A DNA stretch of 36,868 nucleotides, from the IMG/VR virus record IMGVR_UViG_3300011831_000028; one strand, given 5' to 3'. Below are positions 2,335 through 35,164 of the stretch, in pieces; the stretch's first letter is position 1; every line of letters starts with the position of its first letter. The notes beneath the pieces are model-generated. The model saw only the letters and a program-made list of their open reading frames with translations, had not been told where the DNA came from and did not search any database. The position numbers and the translations under genes were made by a program. This stretch comes from a virus. Lineage: Duplodnaviria > Heunggongvirae > Uroviricota > Caudoviricetes.

Positions 2335-2446
2335 GTCTCAAGTTTGCGCGTGGTGAAAATTATTTTCGTTACGCGCAGAACTTTTTTATCAGGGGGCAGT
2401 CATAACTAGTGCCACTGCTTTTCTTTGATGTCCCCAATTTGTGGAG

Positions 2447-2490
2447 CCCATCAACCCCGCCGTTTTGGTTCAAGGTTGATGGGTTTTTTG
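2447..2490 (+). terminator. rho-independent terminator-like hairpin downstream of ybjL; its 3' arm lies inside the attR core
   Basis: Perfect 10-bp stem cccatcaacc / ggttgatggg (2447-2456 / 2474-2483), 17-nt loop, then T6 (2484-2489). Confidence 0.45.
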
Positions 2491-2500
2491 TTGCCTGAAA
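2479..2500. repeat. attR core, 22-bp direct repeat atgggttttttgttgcctgaaa
   Basis: Identical 22-mer at 2479-2500 and 36378-36399, bracketing ogr at one end and int at the other. Confidence 0.75.
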
Positions 2501-24565: not shown

Positions 24566-25975
24566 TTACTCATCTACTCTGATTTTTTGTTTTTTATTAT
24601 TTTGAGTTAAGACATTTATGGTAATAGATGTATACGGATGAAAGTCAGGCACTATACTTTTAACCTCTCCATTTTCAAGAAAATGATGTGCTATTGAAGG
24701 AAATAAATCAGGATCTACAGGATATTTAGCATTAGGATTATGATACATATTTAAACCTTCTGCCCATGTTTCTGTAATATCGCCTTCTTTCACTTCAAAA
24801 CTAAATGCTGCTGGATATAATGCCTCTGGGTCATGATCATGGCAGTAACCACTCCTAAATAATCTAAGGTCACTTCTTCCAAAACCAGCCAGTTTTCCCA
24901 TCCGATTAAACTTCGATATAGTACCACTATTAGAACTAAGGACGGCCGAAATATTTTCAGACTCATCCAAGAAGAAAAAGCCTGAAGGAATTTCCTTTTT
25001 CTCAAATTGATGCGATATAATTTTCTTAGTTGCTAAACTGTAACATCCATCTTCAGATTTAACATGCTCATAGCGAATACCATAAAGATACTGCCAAAGT
25101 GCACTATGGGACCAAATCATAGAGTTTGGTTCATGAAAATCAGCAATTGCGAAAATTAAAGGATTCCCCTTAACATGTTCTAGATCCCAGTATCGAGTTT
25201 TCTTTTTCAGTTTAGAATAGAGAGAACTTCCAAATTTAATCGGCATATAATTCTCTATTTTCTCTAGCAATTCTTCCTTACTTTTAGGTTCAGATAGCAT
25301 TTCAGATGATTGATTAATATCATTCCCTGTTGGATTAACCGTTACAGCTTCAATGCAAATAGTATTACCATACTTACGTGCCACATAATCAGGGGCATTA
25401 AACTGCCTATCTAGCCAAAAGTGTTCCTCTCGTAAATATGCGAAAAGATATAACTCCCATAGCCGGGCATCAAAACCTGTTGTCTGAAACTGCTCTATAA
25501 AATTCCCGTCGACATCCTCAAAATGATTCATCATTTCCTTGATTATCCCTGTTGCAGGCGACCAGTTCGCGTATTTACCAAATAATGAAAAATGATGATG
25601 AAGTTTATCTGGTGTAACTATAGGTGTGAATAAATCCATTGCTTTATAAGTTTCATCACCTTGTGGAAATACTTTTACGTTTAATTTAGTATGCTTCCGC
25701 ATTAATTTCTTTAGTTTTGCTCGTGCAGAATTCATTTCTGAAACACTAGTAAATAGGTCAATACATCTATATCTCCCACTTAAGTCTCTTGCTAAAACAA
25801 TACCGCTATAATCTTCATCGATTTGATCCAATAATAGTGCCCCTAGCAGGAACTCTCTCGGACTACAGTACCACTCAAACTCATAGCCTAAAAGTTCAGT
25901 ATTTGGCATTCTGGTCCAATCAACAAAAGCATTAAACCTCTCTTTACTCATTTTTTTTATATCAAGAAAAGACAT
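24566..25975 (-). CDS. hypothetical 469-aa protein, A+T-rich accessory gene between portal gene and cos
   Basis: Uninterrupted ORF with GAGG Shine-Dalgarno 8 nt upstream of ATG; no family recognised by eye; convergent with Q. Confidence 0.6.
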   Translation of the reverse strand: MSFLDIKKMSKERFNAFVDWTRMPNTELLGYEFEWYCSPREFLLGALLLDQIDEDYSGIVLARDLSGRYRCIDLFTSVSEMNSARAKLKKLMRKHTKLNVKVFPQGDETYKAMDLFTPIVTPDKLHHHFSLFGKYANWSPATGIIKEMMNHFEDVDGNFIEQFQTTGFDARLWELYLFAYLREEHFWLDRQFNAPDYVARKYGNTICIEAVTVNPTGNDINQSSEMLSEPKSKEELLEKIENYMPIKFGSSLYSKLKKKTRYWDLEHVKGNPLIFAIADFHEPNSMIWSHSALWQYLYGIRYEHVKSEDGCYSLATKKIISHQFEKKEIPSGFFFLDESENISAVLSSNSGTISKFNRMGKLAGFGRSDLRLFRSGYCHDHDPEALYPAAFSFEVKEGDITETWAEGLNMYHNPNAKYPVDPDLFPSIAHHFLENGEVKSIVPDFHPYTSITINVLTQNNKKQKIRVDE

Positions 25976-26095: not shown

Positions 26096-26142
26096 CCGCT
26101 TTATGTAGTGGTTTTCATGCACCTGCATGATCTACGCAAAAG

Positions 26143-26164
26143 CCCGCCAGTTCTGGCGGGCCTT
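26143..26164 (-). terminator. GC-rich hairpin, probable terminator for the leftward A/dinI-like transcript
   Basis: agcccgccag ttc tggcgggcc; T-run follows on the minus strand (cttttgcg). Confidence 0.4.
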
Positions 26165-26296
26165 AGCAAAAACGATCCTCAAACGATCATGCGATCTCAT
26201 GCGGCATAGACATGCACTACAGAGCTAACGCCTCGCAAGGGCTCGTTGTTCAACCTTGCTGACGCCAGAAGCAAGTTCAGACGCCAGCAACGTTTC

Positions 26297-26530
26297 TTAA
26301 TGCAGCCAGCTGTCGTCTTCCCACACCTTCTGCATAATTTTCATCACTTGTTTTCTTTCTTCGTCCAGTTGCAGTCCGGTTAGTTCCACACCGTTAGAGC
26401 TACCTTTGCGAATGCGAATTACCGTTTTGGGATACAGGGGGCGCAGATTGCGGTAAAGCTCGGATTCAAGGGCGTCCAGGGTAGACTGGCTAATCTTCTG
26501 CTCTTTATCGATCATTATTTCAATGCGCAT
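26297..26530 (-). CDS. DinI-like protein (possible Tum-like SOS module component)
   Basis: MRIEIMIDKEQ..LDALESELYRNLRPLYP..VIRIRKGSSNGVELTG.. resembles recalled DinI (MRIEVTIAK..ALAGELSRRIQ..VSVRYAAANNLSVIG); GAGGTG SD upstream of Met25 of the track ORF. Confidence 0.65.
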   Translation of the reverse strand: MRIEIMIDKEQKISQSTLDALESELYRNLRPLYPKTVIRIRKGSSNGVELTGLQLDEERKQVMKIMQKVWEDDSWLH

Positions 26531-26540
26531 AAAAGTCACC

Positions 26541-26729
26541 TCAGCTGATGACATCCATTGAGCGGTTGTATTCGTGGGTTCTGATTTTTGCCATGAGTTC
26601 ATCAGTCAATTCAGAAACCCACTGCAGAGCCAGCCCCTTCTCTTCATCACTACACTCACTAGCCGCTACAAGCTTAAGAAAAAAATCAATGCGCTGGAGC
26701 TTCAAAGACTCCAAAAAATAGTCCTGCAT
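26541..26729 (-). CDS. small hypothetical protein (62 aa) co-transcribed with the dinI-like gene
   Basis: AGGAGG 4 nt upstream of ATG at 26729; LexA box immediately upstream. Confidence 0.5.
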   Translation of the reverse strand: MQDYFLESLKLQRIDFFLKLVAASECSDEEKGLALQWVSELTDELMAKIRTHEYNRSMDVIS

Positions 26730-26771
26730 CTTTCCTCCTATGACACCACACGCAATACTGTACGCATAACC

Positions 26772-26790
26772 ACTGTTTATATTTACAGTA
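26772..26790. promoter_or_regulatory. LexA (SOS) box
   Basis: actgtttatatttacagta = CTGT-N8-ACAG with AT-rich spacer, 43-61 bp upstream of the small ORF start. Confidence 0.6.
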
Positions 26791-26882
26791 TATAATAATC
26801 TTACTGATGTAAAACGTTTTTTTACGTTCATCAGCCTGATATGCCTGGTATTATAAAGAGCACGAATTGTTAACCCGCGTAA

Positions 26883-29297
26883 TTAATACAGGTTCCGCCA
26901 CTGATCATCTTCTTGCAAACGCTGGTTCCGATAGAAGATACGCAGGCCTGCTCCTGACGGAATACTGCCTCCGCGAAGGAGTAAATCGACCTCTTTCTCG
27001 CTGCCATCAAATCCTCTGGACTTCAGCTCATACACGAGCTGCAGTCGCTGATGGTCTGTAATTCGCTGTTTGTAGTCTTTACGCCGTTTCGGTTTCACCA
27101 GGCGTAACCTTGCAGCCAGTTCCCGGCGCTCTTTTTTGTTCATACTGTGCAGGTAATCGTGCAACTCCTTGTCATCCATGCTGGTAATGTCCGTTCTGGG
27201 GTCCCCATCAGCTGATTTATCTTTCTCCTGTTGGTTCAAATTTTCAGCAAGGGGACAGTTATTGCCACGAGTCCAAGGGGCGCAAGCGCCCTGGTCGGCT
27301 GCCGCCTCCTGAACGTCAACGACCTTACGAACCATTTTCCATTTCATTGCATGAGTGCAGATCTTGCCCTGTACAATGGGTGACCAGATGCCATAAATAC
27401 GAATACCGTGATCGCCATAAGCGGTCGGCTCTTCGTTAATTTCATAAGCTGTTCTGATAAGGTGATATTTGCGGGGAACCAGTACGCCGCCCTGCTTCAT
27501 GATGTAGGTGGCAAAACAGCCAGCATCAGCGGCAGCCAGGATGGCATCAAGGCGCGGGTCATCCAGTACCGGCGCACCTGCTTTTTTGTCACCCTGTTGC
27601 CTTGCCGCCTGACCAGCCAGCAAGCGAAGTTCACGGTACGCCTGACGCCCCGGAATACCAAAGAAGCGGAACTGCTGAACACGATGCAGAGACGCCCAGG
27701 CATTAACGTATTCGGCGTTATCACGCAGGGATTTACCCGTTTCCTTGCTGATCTCGCCAGCCAGACCACGTCCGTCAATGTTCTTACTGATGTATTTCGC
27801 GATGTAGCTTGTCGGCGTTCCTTTGCGCGGGTTTATCAGCTCAGACTTAAAGCGTGGACCCGTGTTATTGCCCAGTTCCTCGCGGTCTTCACGGATGGCA
27901 AACTTACGCAACAATGCAGTAATGGCGCGGCGGTCTTTTTTGCGCATGAAACACATGAGATGCCAGTGCACAGTACCGTCATGGTGCGGCTCAGCCACCC
28001 GCACGCCATACCAGCGCAACCCGGCTTTGTGCATAGCCTTACGAAATGCAGCAAACATGCCGACCAGATAATCGCTGCTTTGTCTTACCGTCGCATTTGT
28101 CCAGGTTGGGTTTGGTCTGCCGTTATTGAGCGTAGAATGGAAACGTGACGGACAGGTAATGGTGTAGAAAACGGCGCAGTCACCACGCATTTCCGCGATA
28201 AGCTCCAGACCTTTAACACAGGCCATCATCTCATTGCGGCGGTGCGCCGGGTTGCTGCTGCTGGCGTTTACCACATCTTCCATATCCAGCGTGTCGCCGT
28301 CTTCGTTCACCAGTTCATGAGAACGGAAAAACTCCAGCGACTTGCGGCGCTGCTCACGTTTATGCGTCACTGCTTCATAGCTGACATAGGGAGATGCTTT
28401 TTTGCTGACCAGGCAGACAGCACGCAACTGCTCTTCCCGCCATTCGCAACGTATCTTCCACAATTTTCGATACCACCAGTCGGCGCAAAGCATACGTGCC
28501 AGCGAACCCGGTATGAGTTCATAGGGCACGGGTTTGCGGCGGTTTCTTTTCCGACGGAGTTTCTCAAACGCAGGCGGGATAACATCCAGACGCAGGGTTT
28601 CCGCTGCCACCTTTTCCCATGTCTTGCGGATTTCTTCTGGCTTAACGTCATCGGAGGCATACAAATCACCACAAGCGGCCTCAAGACACATGCTCATATG
28701 CGCTGCTACCAAGGTGGACAGGCGTTTTACCTGATCCTGACTCATTTCAGGCAGGATCAGCAGGCCCTCAAGCCTTTGATGGCTTGCCATAAAACGGAAA
28801 GAAGCGGATAGCTGACTGTCGCGTACATACTCCAGTCGCTCCAGACATGACTTAATCGTCTCACGCAAATAGCGGGAATAAGCCTTTGGCCTGCCCAGGC
28901 TGCTGAAGTATTCGATACGTTGCATCAGCGGCTTGCTGATGTGGGTGGGCTGGGCGCTGACGTCCGCCAGAATGACCATGTCCGGGTTAAAACGCTGCTG
29001 CTCATGCGCCAGCTTTGCCCGACTAATGAGATTATCCTGCTCCATTTCGCGCTGGACAGGATCACGGGATTCATTAAAGAAATAACGCTCCCAGACCTGC
29101 TCACTCAGTGCATCGCGGCGCAGCTGTTCCTGCTCGTTATCGGCAGCGTACAGAGTGATCATGTTTGAAAGTGCAGACTCCGGCGCAACTTCCGCCGGGT
29201 CCAGATAAGGGTTAATGGCCTTTTTCGGGCCGTTCCATGAAAATGCTGCAGCGGCCTCGTTAAAGCCGCTAGAGTTGCTCATATCATCATGACTCAT
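26883..29297 (-). CDS. A: replication initiation endonuclease gpA-like (rolling-circle)
   Basis: 804-aa ORF in the P2/186 A position between early genes and cos. Confidence 0.85.
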
Positions 29298-30151
29298 ACA
29301 CGCACCTCGTACACAGCAGAACTATCCACGCCACGCGAAGGATCAAATCCCACCCAGCAGCGCGCCCCGGAAACAGCAATGATTTCTGTTGCAGATTTAC
29401 TCTCGCCAGCCGACACGCCGATGCTGCGTTTTGCCTTGATGTAGTGGTGAGTGAAATTGCGATACAGCGAACGAATCAGGGATGTGTCACTGTTAGAAAC
29501 AATGACCGGATGACCTTCAGATGATCGATGTTCAAGAACGGATGCCAGGTGATACTGGTCATCCTCAGTGAAGCCATCAGTGTGATAGCCGGAAAACGTA
29601 CCGTCATAAGGCGGATCGCAATACACCACATCCCCCGCCTTCAACATCGCCAGCGTTTCATCAAAGCTGGCGCAGATAAACGTTGCTCGCTGGGCTTTTT
29701 CTGCAAATTTGCGAATTTCTTTTTCAGGGAAATACGGATTTTTATAATTCCCGTAGGGAATGTTGAAATGCCCGCTCTTGTTATAGCGACATAACCCACG
29801 GTAACCATGACGATTGAGATACAGGAAATATACCGCTTTCATGAAATCAGTAATTTCAGTGGAGTAATTAAACTCCTGCCTTATGTTGTAATAAGCCACC
29901 TCCCTGTTTGCTTCCTCAAATAAAGCTCTGGCACGAGATATAAACGCCTCGCAATCAGCAGCAACCTTTTTATAGAGGTTGATTAAATCAGGATTAATAT
30001 CCGCAACAAGATAGCTGGGGTAATCCGTCTCTATCATCACAGCACAAGAACCCGCGAAAGGTTCAACCAGTCGCGGGCCAGCAGGAAGGTATTTTTTCAG
30101 TTCTGGCATAATGGCGGTTTTATTACCCGCCCATTTCAGGATGGTGCTCAT
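29294..30151 (-). CDS. DNA N6-adenine methyltransferase (Dam family)
   Basis: LKWAGNK, FAGSCAV (motif I) and DPPY (motif IV); start at Met21 of the track ORF, ATGA overlap with upstream gene. Confidence 0.85.
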
Positions 30152-30375
30152 ACAGCACCTCCGTTGTAATGTTTGCCTTTCAGCTCTGCGATTTCCTGAC
30201 AGGTAATGCAAAGCTGCACACCCGGAATGGCGCGACGTCGTGCTGGCGGAATTGGTGCTTCACACTCAATGCAAAGCACGCGGGATACGCCCGGCGTTTT
30301 GGCGTGGGCAGCACGGATATGACGCTGGCGTTCTTCTTCAACGCGCTGCTGTACGAGATCCATTGCATCAGCCAT
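30148..30375 (-). CDS. TraR/DksA-family C4 zinc-finger protein
   Basis: CIECEAPIP..RRRAIPGVQLCITCQ. Confidence 0.75.
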   Translation of the reverse strand: MADAMDLVQQRVEEERQRHIRAAHAKTPGVSRVLCIECEAPIPPARRRAIPGVQLCITCQEIAELKGKHYNGGAV

Positions 30376-31952: not shown

Positions 31953-32077
31953 GATGCAACATTCCTCGTTTAATGTTGATTAATCAGGACGAATACGGAT
32001 CGTTTGTATTTTGTGAACATCATAAACATACGATCGCATAATGAAATCGTCAAGACAAAAGTTCACTTGGAGTGACC
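31953..32077. promoter_or_regulatory. cI/apl divergent promoter-operator region
   Basis: 125-bp intergenic with palindrome tgattaatca (31975-31984), repeated atacg(g)atcg (31993-32002 and 32029-32037) and inverted gtgaac/gttcac (32013-32018 and 32061-32066). Confidence 0.5.
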
Positions 32078-32647
32078 ATGAATTTGGAGAAAGGCGGACG
32101 AGGCGCTATAGAGCGCATGGTAGAAGCATATGGCTTCAAGACTCGACAGGCGTTGTGCGATCACTTAGGAATCTCTAAAAGTACTCTCGCCACACGCTAT
32201 ATGCGTGACTCATTCCCTGCTGAATGGGTAATCCAGTGCGCACTTGAAACGGGCGCCTCGCTTAACTGGCTCACGACCGGACATGGTTCAAAGCAAACTT
32301 CAGGTAATACAAATACTATGGAAGTCGTTAAATATGTATTATCTGATGGAACCTTGCAGGAAGATGGTTTTTATATTTTCGATAAAGAATTTCTACCATC
32401 TACGCTCAAAAATCCGTTTGTAATCACCGATAACAATTCCGTTTTTATTTGCGATAAAGAGTTTAACGATATTCGTGACGGCAAATGGGTAATAAGTATT
32501 GATGCCGAAGTAACAATCCGCGATATCACTCGTTTACCTGGTGGAAGAATCTTAGTTGAAGGTGGAAATAGGGCTTTCGAATGTAAAAAAGAAGAAATCG
32601 AAATTATTGGAAAAATTATAAGCATAACAGTTAAGTACTTTGAGTAA
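32078..32647 (+). CDS. cI: immunity repressor CI (186-type, N-terminal HTH plus C-terminal oligomerisation domain)
   Basis: MNLEKGGRGAIERMVEAYGFKTRQALCDHLGISKSTLATRYMRD..; GGAG 6 nt upstream of ATG at 32078 (track ORF begins at GTG 32072). Confidence 0.8.
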   Translation: MNLEKGGRGAIERMVEAYGFKTRQALCDHLGISKSTLATRYMRDSFPAEWVIQCALETGASLNWLTTGHGSKQTSGNTNTMEVVKYVLSDGTLQEDGFYIFDKEFLPSTLKNPFVITDNNSVFICDKEFNDIRDGKWVISIDAEVTIRDITRLPGGRILVEGGNRAFECKKEEIEIIGKIISITVKYFE

Positions 32648-32697: not shown

Positions 32698-33621
32698 ATG
32701 TCAACTCAAAAATTAAAATTTAGCCATATCAAAAACGATCTGAAAGCAATAGTTATGCAGAATCGTGGAGGGCAAAAAGTTATTGAGCGTATACTCCTAG
32801 CCTATGGCTTCAAGTCACGACAGGCATTATGTAATCATCTAGGTATTTCCCAAAGTACTATGGCCAACAGATATGCACGTAATACCTTTCCTGCAGATTG
32901 GGTTGTTATATGTTCCATAGAAACAGGAGCATCAATTGAATGGTTAGTTCTTGGTTCAGATACTGCTCCTTCATCAGAGCAATATTCTGAAAAACATGCC
33001 GTTAATGGCCTTTGCAATGAAGTATACATTCCCACTATAAAGTTCGATAATGAAAAACTCATGAATTTTAACCGAGGGGGTAAGGCAACAATAGAACGAA
33101 TTGTCGAGGCTTACGGTTACAAAACGCGCCAAGCATTAGCTGATCACCTAGGTATTTCAAAAAGCACATTAGCCACACGATACATGCGTGACATTTTTCC
33201 TGCAGACTGGGCTTTGCAGTGTGCAATAGAAACGGGCCATTCTATTGAATGGATTTCATTTGGTACAGGAGAAATGAAAAACGCAAAAAATAAAGATACT
33301 TTAACATTAGTGAAAAAAGTATTAATCAATGGCAAGTTAATAAATGATGGCTCATATTTATTTGACCCATGCTTTCTACCTTCCAATTTAAAAAATGCAT
33401 TCGTAGTATCTACCGAAGACTCTGAATTAATATGTGAAATGGGTTTTAAAGATGTACATGATGGTAAGTGGCTAGTAAATATTGATGGAGAGAATTCATT
33501 TAGAATGATAACTCGACTACCTAAAGGACGAGTTTATATTTCATCCCAAAATCACTCTTTTGAATGTTCGCTTACAGATATTGAGTTTATTGCAAAAGTT
33601 ATTATAAGTTGTTTACATTAA
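32698..33621 (+). CDS. CI-paralogue with two tandem CI-type HTH domains and a CI-like C-terminal domain
   Basis: Residues ~23-88 and ~117-182 each align to the CI N-terminal domain; second copy has recognition helix SKSTLATRYMRD identical to CI; C-terminal ~100 aa aligns to the CI C-terminal domain. Confidence 0.7.
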   Translation: MSTQKLKFSHIKNDLKAIVMQNRGGQKVIERILLAYGFKSRQALCNHLGISQSTMANRYARNTFPADWVVICSIETGASIEWLVLGSDTAPSSEQYSEKHAVNGLCNEVYIPTIKFDNEKLMNFNRGGKATIERIVEAYGYKTRQALADHLGISKSTLATRYMRDIFPADWALQCAIETGHSIEWISFGTGEMKNAKNKDTLTLVKKVLINGKLINDGSYLFDPCFLPSNLKNAFVVSTEDSELICEMGFKDVHDGKWLVNIDGENSFRMITRLPKGRVYISSQNHSFECSLTDIEFIAKVIISCLH

Positions 33622-33646: not shown

Positions 33647-35164
33647 GTGAAATGTGGTGATTGTAATTGGAACTGGGATGAAGAAACTACCTTTATATTA
33701 GACGACGAAGAGGAAATTCTTTCCAAAGACAAACTTAATCGGAGACACTATGCAGAATATCTATATTTTTATCTTAAGGAAAAGGGGCAAAAGAACAACA
33801 CGGTAATCAACCTTAATGCAGAATGGGGAGCTGGTAAAAGTTTTTTCATAAAGAGATTTTATAACTCAATAAAAGATGCACACCCATGCGTTTACATTGA
33901 TGCCTGGAAGCAAGACTTTTCTGATGATGCATTTTTAACCCTTTTTTCTTCTTTGTCACAACAATTGCAAACATATGCAGGAAAACTTGATGCTCGATTG
34001 ATACAAAGCGGCCATGCTATCGGACGCTTTACAAAAGGTGTTCTACCTGAAATCATATCTGGCCTAATCAAGACTTATGCAGGAGTAGATAACGTAGGTG
34101 ATATAGCCAAAGAAGCCTCATTAATAATGCTGAAGGAACACCAGGAAAAACTGAAGAGCATTAAGGTATTAAAAAAAGAACTAACGTTATGGTCTAGGTT
34201 GGCATATGAAAATAGTTTTTCATGTCCTATATTTATCTTTATAGATGAATTAGACAGATGCAGGCCAGATTATGCAATTTCTCTTTTAGAGATTGTTAAA
34301 CATATATTCGATATTAAAAATTTTGTCTTTATTATTGCTACTGACACAGATCAATTACAACATTCAATCAAGAATGTTTACGGTAATGATTTTTCCGCAA
34401 ATGACTATTTAGGCCGTTTTTTTCATAGAAGATTTACTTTAAAACAACCTGAACTTAAAGATTTAATTAATGGTGTTGTTGGTGATTATATTGGTACCGA
34501 TTTTGAAAATATCACATCAAAAACATACCCACTAACAGCAACATTAGAAGACTTTTCAATAAATATTTCCAACGTATTTGAAGCATTTGGGTTAAATCTA
34601 AGAGACTCAATCCGAAATACTGAAAGGTTAATAGACATTCTTAAATCTGATTTAGTCAAAAAGAAAGTAGATTATATTTTTATAATTTCGCTAATGATTA
34701 TATATGATAAGGATCGTCAAATTATAGATGGACTAATTGGTCGAAGAAATGCAGCACAACGTTTCACTGATTCGATAAAGCAAAGCTCCAATTTAAAAGG
34801 TGTTTCTCAAGCCATCCTTGAATTAAATCTTGATACAAATCAGCAAAGAATAGGTGTCAATTATATCTATAGAACGGCGAGCAGTAGATTATTCATCTCA
34901 CAGATCGAGCCCAAAATAAATTTAACATTAATAAATTACTTAGATGTTGCATTGTATTTTATTAATAATATAAACATGCTTAAATCAAGTATAAAAAACA
35001 ATGGGCAAAATTCACTAATGATTATATCTCAACAAGGCCCTATTGATGGTGATACAGCTATAAAGTATTTGCAAGGAGCCCTTATAGAGAATGGTCTGAA
35101 TACATCTTTTTATGCCTTACATAATTACATTGAATTAATTGAACTGGCCACATCATTTGATTAA
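33647..35164 (+). CDS. KAP-family P-loop NTPase
   Basis: Walker A NLNAEWGAGKSFF and Walker B IFIFIDELDRCRPDYAISLLE, both hallmark KAP signatures; GTG start with GGAG upstream. Confidence 0.7.
   Translation: MKCGDCNWNWDEETTFILDDEEEILSKDKLNRRHYAEYLYFYLKEKGQKNNTVINLNAEWGAGKSFFIKRFYNSIKDAHPCVYIDAWKQDFSDDAFLTLFSSLSQQLQTYAGKLDARLIQSGHAIGRFTKGVLPEIISGLIKTYAGVDNVGDIAKEASLIMLKEHQEKLKSIKVLKKELTLWSRLAYENSFSCPIFIFIDELDRCRPDYAISLLEIVKHIFDIKNFVFIIATDTDQLQHSIKNVYGNDFSANDYLGRFFHRRFTLKQPELKDLINGVVGDYIGTDFENITSKTYPLTATLEDFSINISNVFEAFGLNLRDSIRNTERLIDILKSDLVKKKVDYIFIISLMIIYDKDRQIIDGLIGRRNAAQRFTDSIKQSSNLKGVSQAILELNLDTNQQRIGVNYIYRTASSRLFISQIEPKINLTLINYLDVALYFINNINMLKSSIKNNGQNSLMIISQQGPIDGDTAIKYLQGALIENGLNTSFYALHNYIELIELATSFD

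Follow-up and report, generated by a model that had tools for sequence, protein, structure and literature searches.

The antirepressor Tum of phage 186 sequesters the immunity repressor CI (PMC7708051), and binding of CI by Tum is attributed to Shearwin 1998 in the later papers that cite that work. Tum resembles an antirepressor fused to DinI, and in Fels-2 and PSP3 the tum gene is split in two, with the antirepressor activity assigned to the upstream gene (PMC3121763). For Fels-2, the split is credited to Bunny, Liu & Roth 2002, as cited in Lemire 2011 (PMC3121763). The PSP3 record describes tumA as 'similar to 5' end 186 tum; UV induction of prophage' and names the second gene tumB. Genetic data are available for DuoHS, a prophage of Escherichia coli HS, in which neither MMC-induced lysis nor virion foci are seen once tum (ECHS_RS04495) has been deleted in frame or lexA replaced by a lexA(Ind-) allele (Phollow, Nat Microbiol 2025, PMC12055606). 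ECHS_RS04495 itself is a 189-nt gene of the HS genome, annotated as 'hypothetical protein' and located between the replication endonuclease gene and the DinI-like gene ECHS_RS04500.

Here, we analyzed a locus of this kind in the virus record IMGVR_UViG_3300011831_000028, a stretch of 36,868 nucleotides referred to below as the window. A preliminary description, made from the letters alone, had suggested that a pair of small genes at 26297-26790 could be the SOS induction module of a prophage, or else a DinI-type RecA modulator carried as cargo. The pair is very probably the SOS induction operon of a Fels-2/DuoHS-type (186-like) P2-family prophage and a split version of 186 tum. The split Tum module is already known from PSP3, Fels-2, and DuoHS, and the locus adds no new biology beyond those. 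What this analysis establishes is the sequence anatomy of the operon, its homologies, and the conserved association between box and gene.

The operon and its control region

Gene A, an 804-aa P2/186 A-type replication gene, occupies positions 29297..26883 of the window, and the operon follows directly downstream, ahead of the portal gene. The order of gene A, LexA box, and tum is common to the window, 186, PSP3, Fels-2, and DuoHS. As the preliminary description had stated, 186 itself carries a LexA-regulated tum at this place, with p95, a LexA site, and tum located after gene A. As expected for a 186-type Tum module, the operon of the window lies at the cos-proximal end of the early region and is followed by cargo and the portal gene. 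Its features are listed below.

26834..26804, minus strand: imperfect inverted repeat CTGATG...CATCAG, lying between gene A and the promoter; the 3' arm includes the proposed -35 element
26813..26785, minus strand: proposed sigma-70 promoter, with -35 TTTACA (26813..26808), a 17-nt spacer, and -10 TACTGT (26790..26785)
26790..26771, minus strand: LexA (SOS) box TACTGTAAATATAAACAGTG, matching the consensus TACTGTATATATATACAGTA at 17 of 20 positions
26756..26775, minus strand: degenerate second LexA-like site CAGTGGTTATGCGTACAGTA, with 13 of 20 matches and only the right arm ACAGTA intact
26729 (ATG) to 26543-26541 (stop), minus strand: tumA-type antirepressor gene, 62 aa plus stop, with ribosome-binding site (RBS) AGGAGG at 26739..26734
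26530 (ATG) to 26299-26297 (stop), minus strand: tumB-type DinI-family gene, 77 aa plus stop, with RBS GAGGTG at 26542..26537
26167..26136, minus strand: Rho-independent-type terminator GGCCCGCCAG-AACU-GGCGGGC followed by UUUU, about 130 nt past the tumB stop

The near-consensus SOS box reported just upstream of the two small genes was recovered and proved unique. The 20-mer is the sole site in the window with three or fewer mismatches to the LexA consensus, and none of 100 shuffled sequences gave such a site. A motif scan also located the CTGT-N8-ACAG core only once, at 26773-26788. This single core proves little by itself, since 0.49 occurrences are expected by chance in a window of this size; at least one core was present in 42 of 100 shuffles, and the bare core is not significant. 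DNA alignment shows that both the LexA box and the proposed promoter are identical in the window, DuoHS, and Fels-2.

The sequence at 26785..26813 would act as the sigma-70 promoter of the operon. Its -10 element TACTGT doubles as the left arm of the LexA box, the same layout as in the annotated 186 promoter p95 (-35 TTCACA; -10 TACTGT within the LexA site). A consensus promoter scan called no sigma-70 site in the operon region because the -10 element has only three of six matches. This miss is not counted against the promoter, as the annotated p95, with the same weak -10 TACTGT, would fail the thresholds as well. The inverted repeat at 26804..26834 is kept in DuoHS and Fels-2 and may serve as a terminator or insulator after gene A, by analogy with the Gifsy SOS operons, in which terminator-like palindromes precede the LexA boxes (Lemire 2011, PMC3121763).

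The degenerate site at 26756-26775, the mismatches of which were counted by hand, overlaps the right arm of the real box; in 186 and PSP3, the functional box occupies the aligned position. The degenerate site is probably vestigial or weak. The distance from box to ATG is about 22 nt in Pantoea-type relatives versus about 42-50 nt in the window, and the operator seems to have moved upstream in the Fels-2 lineage.

Both small genes indeed have the good ribosome-binding sites first ascribed to them. The RBS of tumB overlaps the tumA stop codon, and tumB starts 10 nt past that stop in a different frame. The locus thus comprises two open reading frames (ORFs), unlike the single fused polypeptide of 186 Tum. 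Because a stop codon, 10 nt, and a change of frame part the two ORFs, it represents the split Fels-2/PSP3 form rather than the 186 form. In agreement with the preliminary description, no other Tum-, TumA-, or DinI-like coding capacity was found elsewhere in the window.

A fused Tum protein produced by programmed frameshifting or readthrough was also considered and rejected: relatives differ in the frame offset between the two genes (0, 1, or 2), and a separate RBS precedes each ORF.

Downstream of tumB, the region 26300..26130 folds as RNA (171 nt) at -68.5 kcal/mol (z = -3.96), and none of 200 shuffled sequences folded as well. Termination would be expected at 26136..26167, a site that a consensus terminator scan missed because its U-run has only four U. 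A second strong hairpin, at 26252-26294, lacks a U-tract.

Between the terminator of the tum operon and the portal gene, an AT-rich cargo ORF of 469 aa (24566-25975, minus strand) corresponds to the antiphage defense gene PD-T7-1 (PADLOC E value, 1.4e-196; also phrog_8571). Homology with DuoHS and Fels-2 ends exactly at the stop codon of the DinI-like gene, and these phages have an orf97-like gene there instead of PD-T7-1. Because homology ends at this point and the cargo differs, the site past the DinI-like stop is read as a cargo exchange hotspot. PADLOC returned no model for the 62-aa or the 77-aa protein.

At the other end of gene A, a DNA adenine methylase-like ORF (29294-30211, minus strand) overlaps the gene start, as in DuoHS and phage vB_EcoM-813R9; phage 186 has the PAPS-reductase-like orf84 at this position. 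The window also contains the host small RNA gene rybB (2414-2492, plus strand; Rfam RF00110, 103.5 bits), and its left end is therefore host chromosome. This flank suggests integration in the same rcdA-ybjL region that DuoHS occupies in E. coli HS.

The two small proteins and their link to the LexA box

The 62-aa ORF belongs to phrog_698 (E value, 3.6e-38), a family listed with function unknown in PHROGs, and has no match in Pfam, NCBIfam, PADLOC, or the PDB sequences. The alignment to 186 Tum proposed in the preliminary description gave a split outcome. The DinI-like ORF is 41% identical to Tum residues 71-145 (about 42% to the Tum C-terminal half); BLASTP of the 62-aa ORF against Tum returned no alignment, though profile methods match it to the Tum N-terminal half. 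Residues 1-70 of Tum match phrog_698 in register (7-44 versus 7-44; E value, 6.7e-6), and phrog_698, phrog_8554, and phrog_1993 are each matched in register by both the 62-aa ORF and the Tum N-half. In addition, an HMM built from the 62-aa family alone scores the N-terminal domain of 186 Tum at 35.1 bits (E value, 5e-9; positions 5-43 versus 5-43), compared to 10.1 bits for the best of 10,000 shuffled decoys.

A profile search with the same family across 1.84 billion representative proteins yielded 87 clusters, almost all of them stand-alone proteins of 50-75 aa. None of the 87 clusters held a fused Tum-like protein, and the search itself gave no bridge to Tum. PSP3 TumA was not detected by the family HMM, and BLASTP of PSP3 TumA against the Tum N-half was likewise empty. 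The link between the 62-aa family and PSP3 TumA runs via phrog_1993, to which PSP3 TumA belongs. On the strength of profile methods over about 40 residues, the 62-aa protein is homologous to the Tum N-terminal domain and exists as a separate polypeptide.

AlphaFold2 predicts the 62-aa protein to be a two-helix hairpin (residues 2-23 and 28-61; pLDDT, 90.8), with a family-invariant Cys26 at the predicted turn. Foldseek searches with this model returned generic helical-hairpin matches only. In a UniRef entry and in some Klebsiella phage annotations, the family goes by 'levan regulatory protein' or 'levan regulatory domain protein', a name that suits neither the genomic setting of the gene nor the genetics of DuoHS.

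The second gene had been called DinI-like, and this assignment stands. The 77-aa ORF matches the Pfam DinI family (PF06183; E value, 6.6e-23; 81.3 bits versus a cutoff of 24.2) over profile positions 1-63 of 63. Its alignment with E. coli DinI, the second one that had been proposed, is full length (PDB 1GHH, residues 1-77). It scores below the NCBIfam equivalog cutoff for DinI (NF007893; 42.7 versus 111 bits), and since this host DinI cutoff is not reached, the protein is regarded as a phage paralog.

To assess how box and genes travel together, we surveyed 37 loci from different Enterobacterales species, each encoding a relative of the 62-aa protein at 65-100% identity. A box was scored when the CTGT/ACAG core had at most one mismatch and lay no more than 150 nt upstream of the start codon. 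A LexA-type box precedes the small ORF in 35 of the 37 loci, with a perfect core in 26 of those 35. Of the two loci without a box, one is on a contig that extends only 53 nt upstream, and in the other the gene is a pseudogene of 20 codons. Outside the 150-nt upstream stretches, the loci contain 8 perfect cores per 110 kb, a background at which about 0.4 would be expected within those stretches. Across the loci, the arms of the boxes are retained but their spacers vary, as is typical of a conserved operator. In 30/37 loci, an A-like gene is found upstream.

The DinI-like gene lies downstream in only 20 of the 37 loci and is therefore an optional accessory. Its frame relative to the upstream gene varies among the surveyed loci, and this variable frame, together with its patchy presence, favors an accessory role and weighs against a frameshifted fusion. 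Two reports agree with such a role: the annotation of 186 states that DinI-only forms of Tum 'modulate SOS induction', and nonpolar dinI deletions in the Gifsy prophages left induction unchanged (Lemire 2011, PMC3121763).

These observations also bear on the proposal that the pair is cargo, that is, a DinI/MsgA-type modulator of host RecA that benefits the lysogen and is unrelated to prophage induction. The DinI family assignment of the 77-aa ORF is solid, prophage dinI homologues are common SOS genes (PMC8072944), and the Gifsy deletions point the same way. However, the upstream 62-aa gene is the experimentally required inducer in the 98%-identical DuoHS locus, and the LexA box accompanies the small ORF in nearly every surveyed locus, but 17 of the 37 lack the DinI-like gene. 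Given the inducer genetics and the association of box and small ORF, the cargo explanation can hold only for the DinI-like gene, as an accessory; for the pair as a whole it is highly improbable. The RecA modulator of the preliminary description thus survives as a secondary role of the DinI-like gene and not as a competing explanation of the operon.

The reading of the pair as an SOS induction module is upheld by the homology of its products to the N- and C-terminal halves of Tum and by the 61/62-identical DuoHS gene, which is required for MMC induction; by analogy, the gene of the window would be required for SOS induction too. Of the two products, the 62-aa protein is the inducer and the DinI-like protein is not.

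The CI repressor and the proposed route of induction

An immunity repressor gene of the 186 type is encoded in the window, divergent from an apl/cII-type early operon.

32072..32647, plus strand: cI, 186-type immunity repressor, 191 aa (Pfam Phage_CI_repr, 3e-33; Phage_CI_C, 7e-27)

This CI is 31% identical to 186 CI and 91% identical to DuoHS CI. A Peptidase_S24 match remains below the cutoff (17.1 versus 23.3 bits), and the repressor is presumably not cleavable through RecA. Because CI is of the 186 type and has no S24 peptidase domain above the cutoff, induction by an antirepressor is expected. Extrapolating from the biochemistry of 186 Tum, CI would be the target of the 62-aa protein.

The following scheme is proposed. 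In the lysogen, host LexA would bind the box at 26771-26790, which overlaps the -10 element of the p95-like promoter, and keep the operon off. Upon DNA damage, active RecA would trigger self-cleavage of LexA, and the two genes would be transcribed, with their translation coupled. The two-helix TumA-type protein would then bind the 186-type CI stoichiometrically and block its binding to the operator, so that the early lytic promoter would be derepressed and lytic growth would follow. The 77-aa TumB-type protein would be an accessory and not an inducer, probably modulating RecA filaments and, hence, the strength or duration of the SOS signal.

The step from the 62-aa protein to CI is where a different route could enter. 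The operon could be SOS controlled and needed for induction without the 62-aa protein sequestering CI directly, with another prolysogenic factor, CI turnover, or a path via Apl/CII involved instead. In the sources cited here, direct CI binding is documented for full-length 186 Tum only. Moreover, TumA is 98-100% identical across phages whose whole-length CI proteins are only 39-56% identical, which is unusual for a tight, specific partner. On the other hand, the 62-aa protein has its homologue in the N-half of Tum, an antirepressor proven to bind CI, and the tumA gene of PSP3 is reported, second-hand as a personal communication, to carry antirepressor activity (PMC3121763). The comparison also changes when CI is divided by domain. 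In the group sharing TumA, the N-terminal helix-turn-helix (HTH) domain of CI is 69-98% identical and offers a conserved surface, compared to 24-86% for the C-terminal domain. An indirect route consequently has a slim chance, and direct sequestration of CI is the preferred reading.

The C-terminal domain of the window CI is 24-26% identical to those of Fels-2, Cartapus, and a Klebsiella phage, no better than to that of 186 (27%). We tentatively suggest, as a possibility on the doubtful side, that TumA recognizes the conserved N-terminal HTH domain of CI and not an immunity-specific surface, that cross-induction of heteroimmune Fels-2-like prophages within one cell could result, and that a tandem-HTH paralog of CI, described below, could be a sink for TumA or a second immunity determinant that tunes induction. 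Support for recognition of a conserved surface is correlative, and the joint conservation of TumA and the CI N-terminal domain could alternatively reflect genetic linkage of tum with the 5' end of cI. If a conserved surface is indeed recognized, one SOS-induced TumA could act in trans, and E. coli genomes hold up to four copies of the locus.

Directly 3' of cI lies a second CI-like gene (32698-33621, plus strand). Its product, of 307 aa, combines a tandem pair of CI-type HTH domains with a single CI C-terminal domain and is 56% identical to the window CI and 52% identical to a 292-aa double-HTH protein annotated as CI in Klebsiella phage ST258-KPC3phi16.2, the only CI match found in that phage. 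No counterpart exists in DuoHS. The paralog may serve as a second immunity determinant or an antirepressor sink, and it could alter inducibility.

The paralog matters for the question of whether this particular prophage responds to SOS at all. With the module intact, induction could still fail if the paralog titrates the antirepressor or represses independently, or if there are defects elsewhere. A two-HTH CI-like gene directly 3' of cI, with none in DuoHS, speaks for this view. However, no decay was seen in the operon, the promoter, or cI, and the tum region is 100% identical to that of the deposited phage record vB_EcoM-813R9. We consider a noninducible prophage unlikely and retain the view that the operon mediates SOS induction here.

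A KAP-family P-loop NTPase of 505 aa is encoded (33647-35164, plus strand) in the interval from the CI paralog to the integrase gene. It matches the PADLOC defense candidate PDC-S20 (E value, 8e-78) and, more weakly, PifA and QatA. At this position, vB_EcoM-813R9 has a different gene, annotated as 'chromosome segregation ATPase'. The phages are mosaic in this respect: the tum region is fully identical in the two, yet the CI of vB_EcoM-813R9 (ON470620, 2474-3070) is only about 53-56% identical to the window CI, the nearest relative of which is DuoHS CI. In the collection searched, no phage record had a CI more than 80% identical to that of the window.

Distribution and comparison with known systems

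The 781-bp locus is present in 1,144 of 5,426 complete E. coli genomes, about one in five, with up to four copies per genome, and it is 100% identical to the corresponding sequence of phage vB_EcoM-813R9. Its annotation in E. coli reads 'DinI-like family protein', 'hypothetical protein', and 'replication endonuclease', in this order. The module would be the way in which this prophage senses DNA damage, which matters given how many genomes carry the locus. The gene that triggers induction represents an annotation gap: it has no Pfam or NCBIfam model, its family is of unknown function in PHROGs, and RefSeq lists it as 'hypothetical protein'. Linking the 62-aa family to the Tum N-terminal domain and to the DuoHS genetics would make antirepressor-type inducible P2-like prophages annotatable.

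Among SOS-controlled antirepressor operons of other phages, the dinI-gfoA/gftA operons of Gifsy-1/2/3 (Lemire 2011, PMC3121763) share the general design, in which a palindrome-preceded LexA box drives a DinI homologue and a small antirepressor of a noncleavable repressor. They differ in that dinI comes first, the antirepressor and repressor families are unrelated to those of the window, and the phages are lambdoid rather than P2-like.

Phage 186 resembles the window in its LexA-controlled tum after gene A, the same promoter design, and a 186-type CI partner. The N-half of its 146-aa Tum, expressed from p95, is homologous to the 62-aa protein, and the C-half is homologous to the DinI-like protein. 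In contrast to the two genes of the window, 186 encodes one fused polypeptide with nested internal starts, including a DinI-only form, and the identity in the N-terminal domain is about 21%.

PSP3 has the same two genes after A, and its TumB is 78% identical to the DinI-like protein of the window. Its TumA, however, is only about 22% identical and belongs to phrog_1993 rather than phrog_698. The tumA and tumB genes of PSP3 are in the same frame with starts 186 nt apart, whereas those of the window are in different frames with starts 199 nt apart, and the LexA box of PSP3 is nearer to the start codon.

In Fels-2, STM2728 is 98% identical to the 62-aa protein, and STM2726.1 is 100% identical to the DinI-like protein, downstream of the same LexA box and promoter. 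It differs from the window in its CI, which is only 39% identical overall (70% in the N-terminal and 25% in the C-terminal domain), and in the orf97-like gene downstream.

DuoHS differs from the window past the DinI-like stop, where it has an orf97-like gene and another ORF and the window has PD-T7-1, and between cI and int, where the window has the extra CI paralog and the KAP NTPase. The 62-aa protein is identical to the product of ECHS_RS04495 at 61 of 62 residues, and no difference is seen in the promoter, the LexA box, or either ribosome-binding site. The DinI-like protein is essentially identical, CI is 91% identical, and the gene order is the same.
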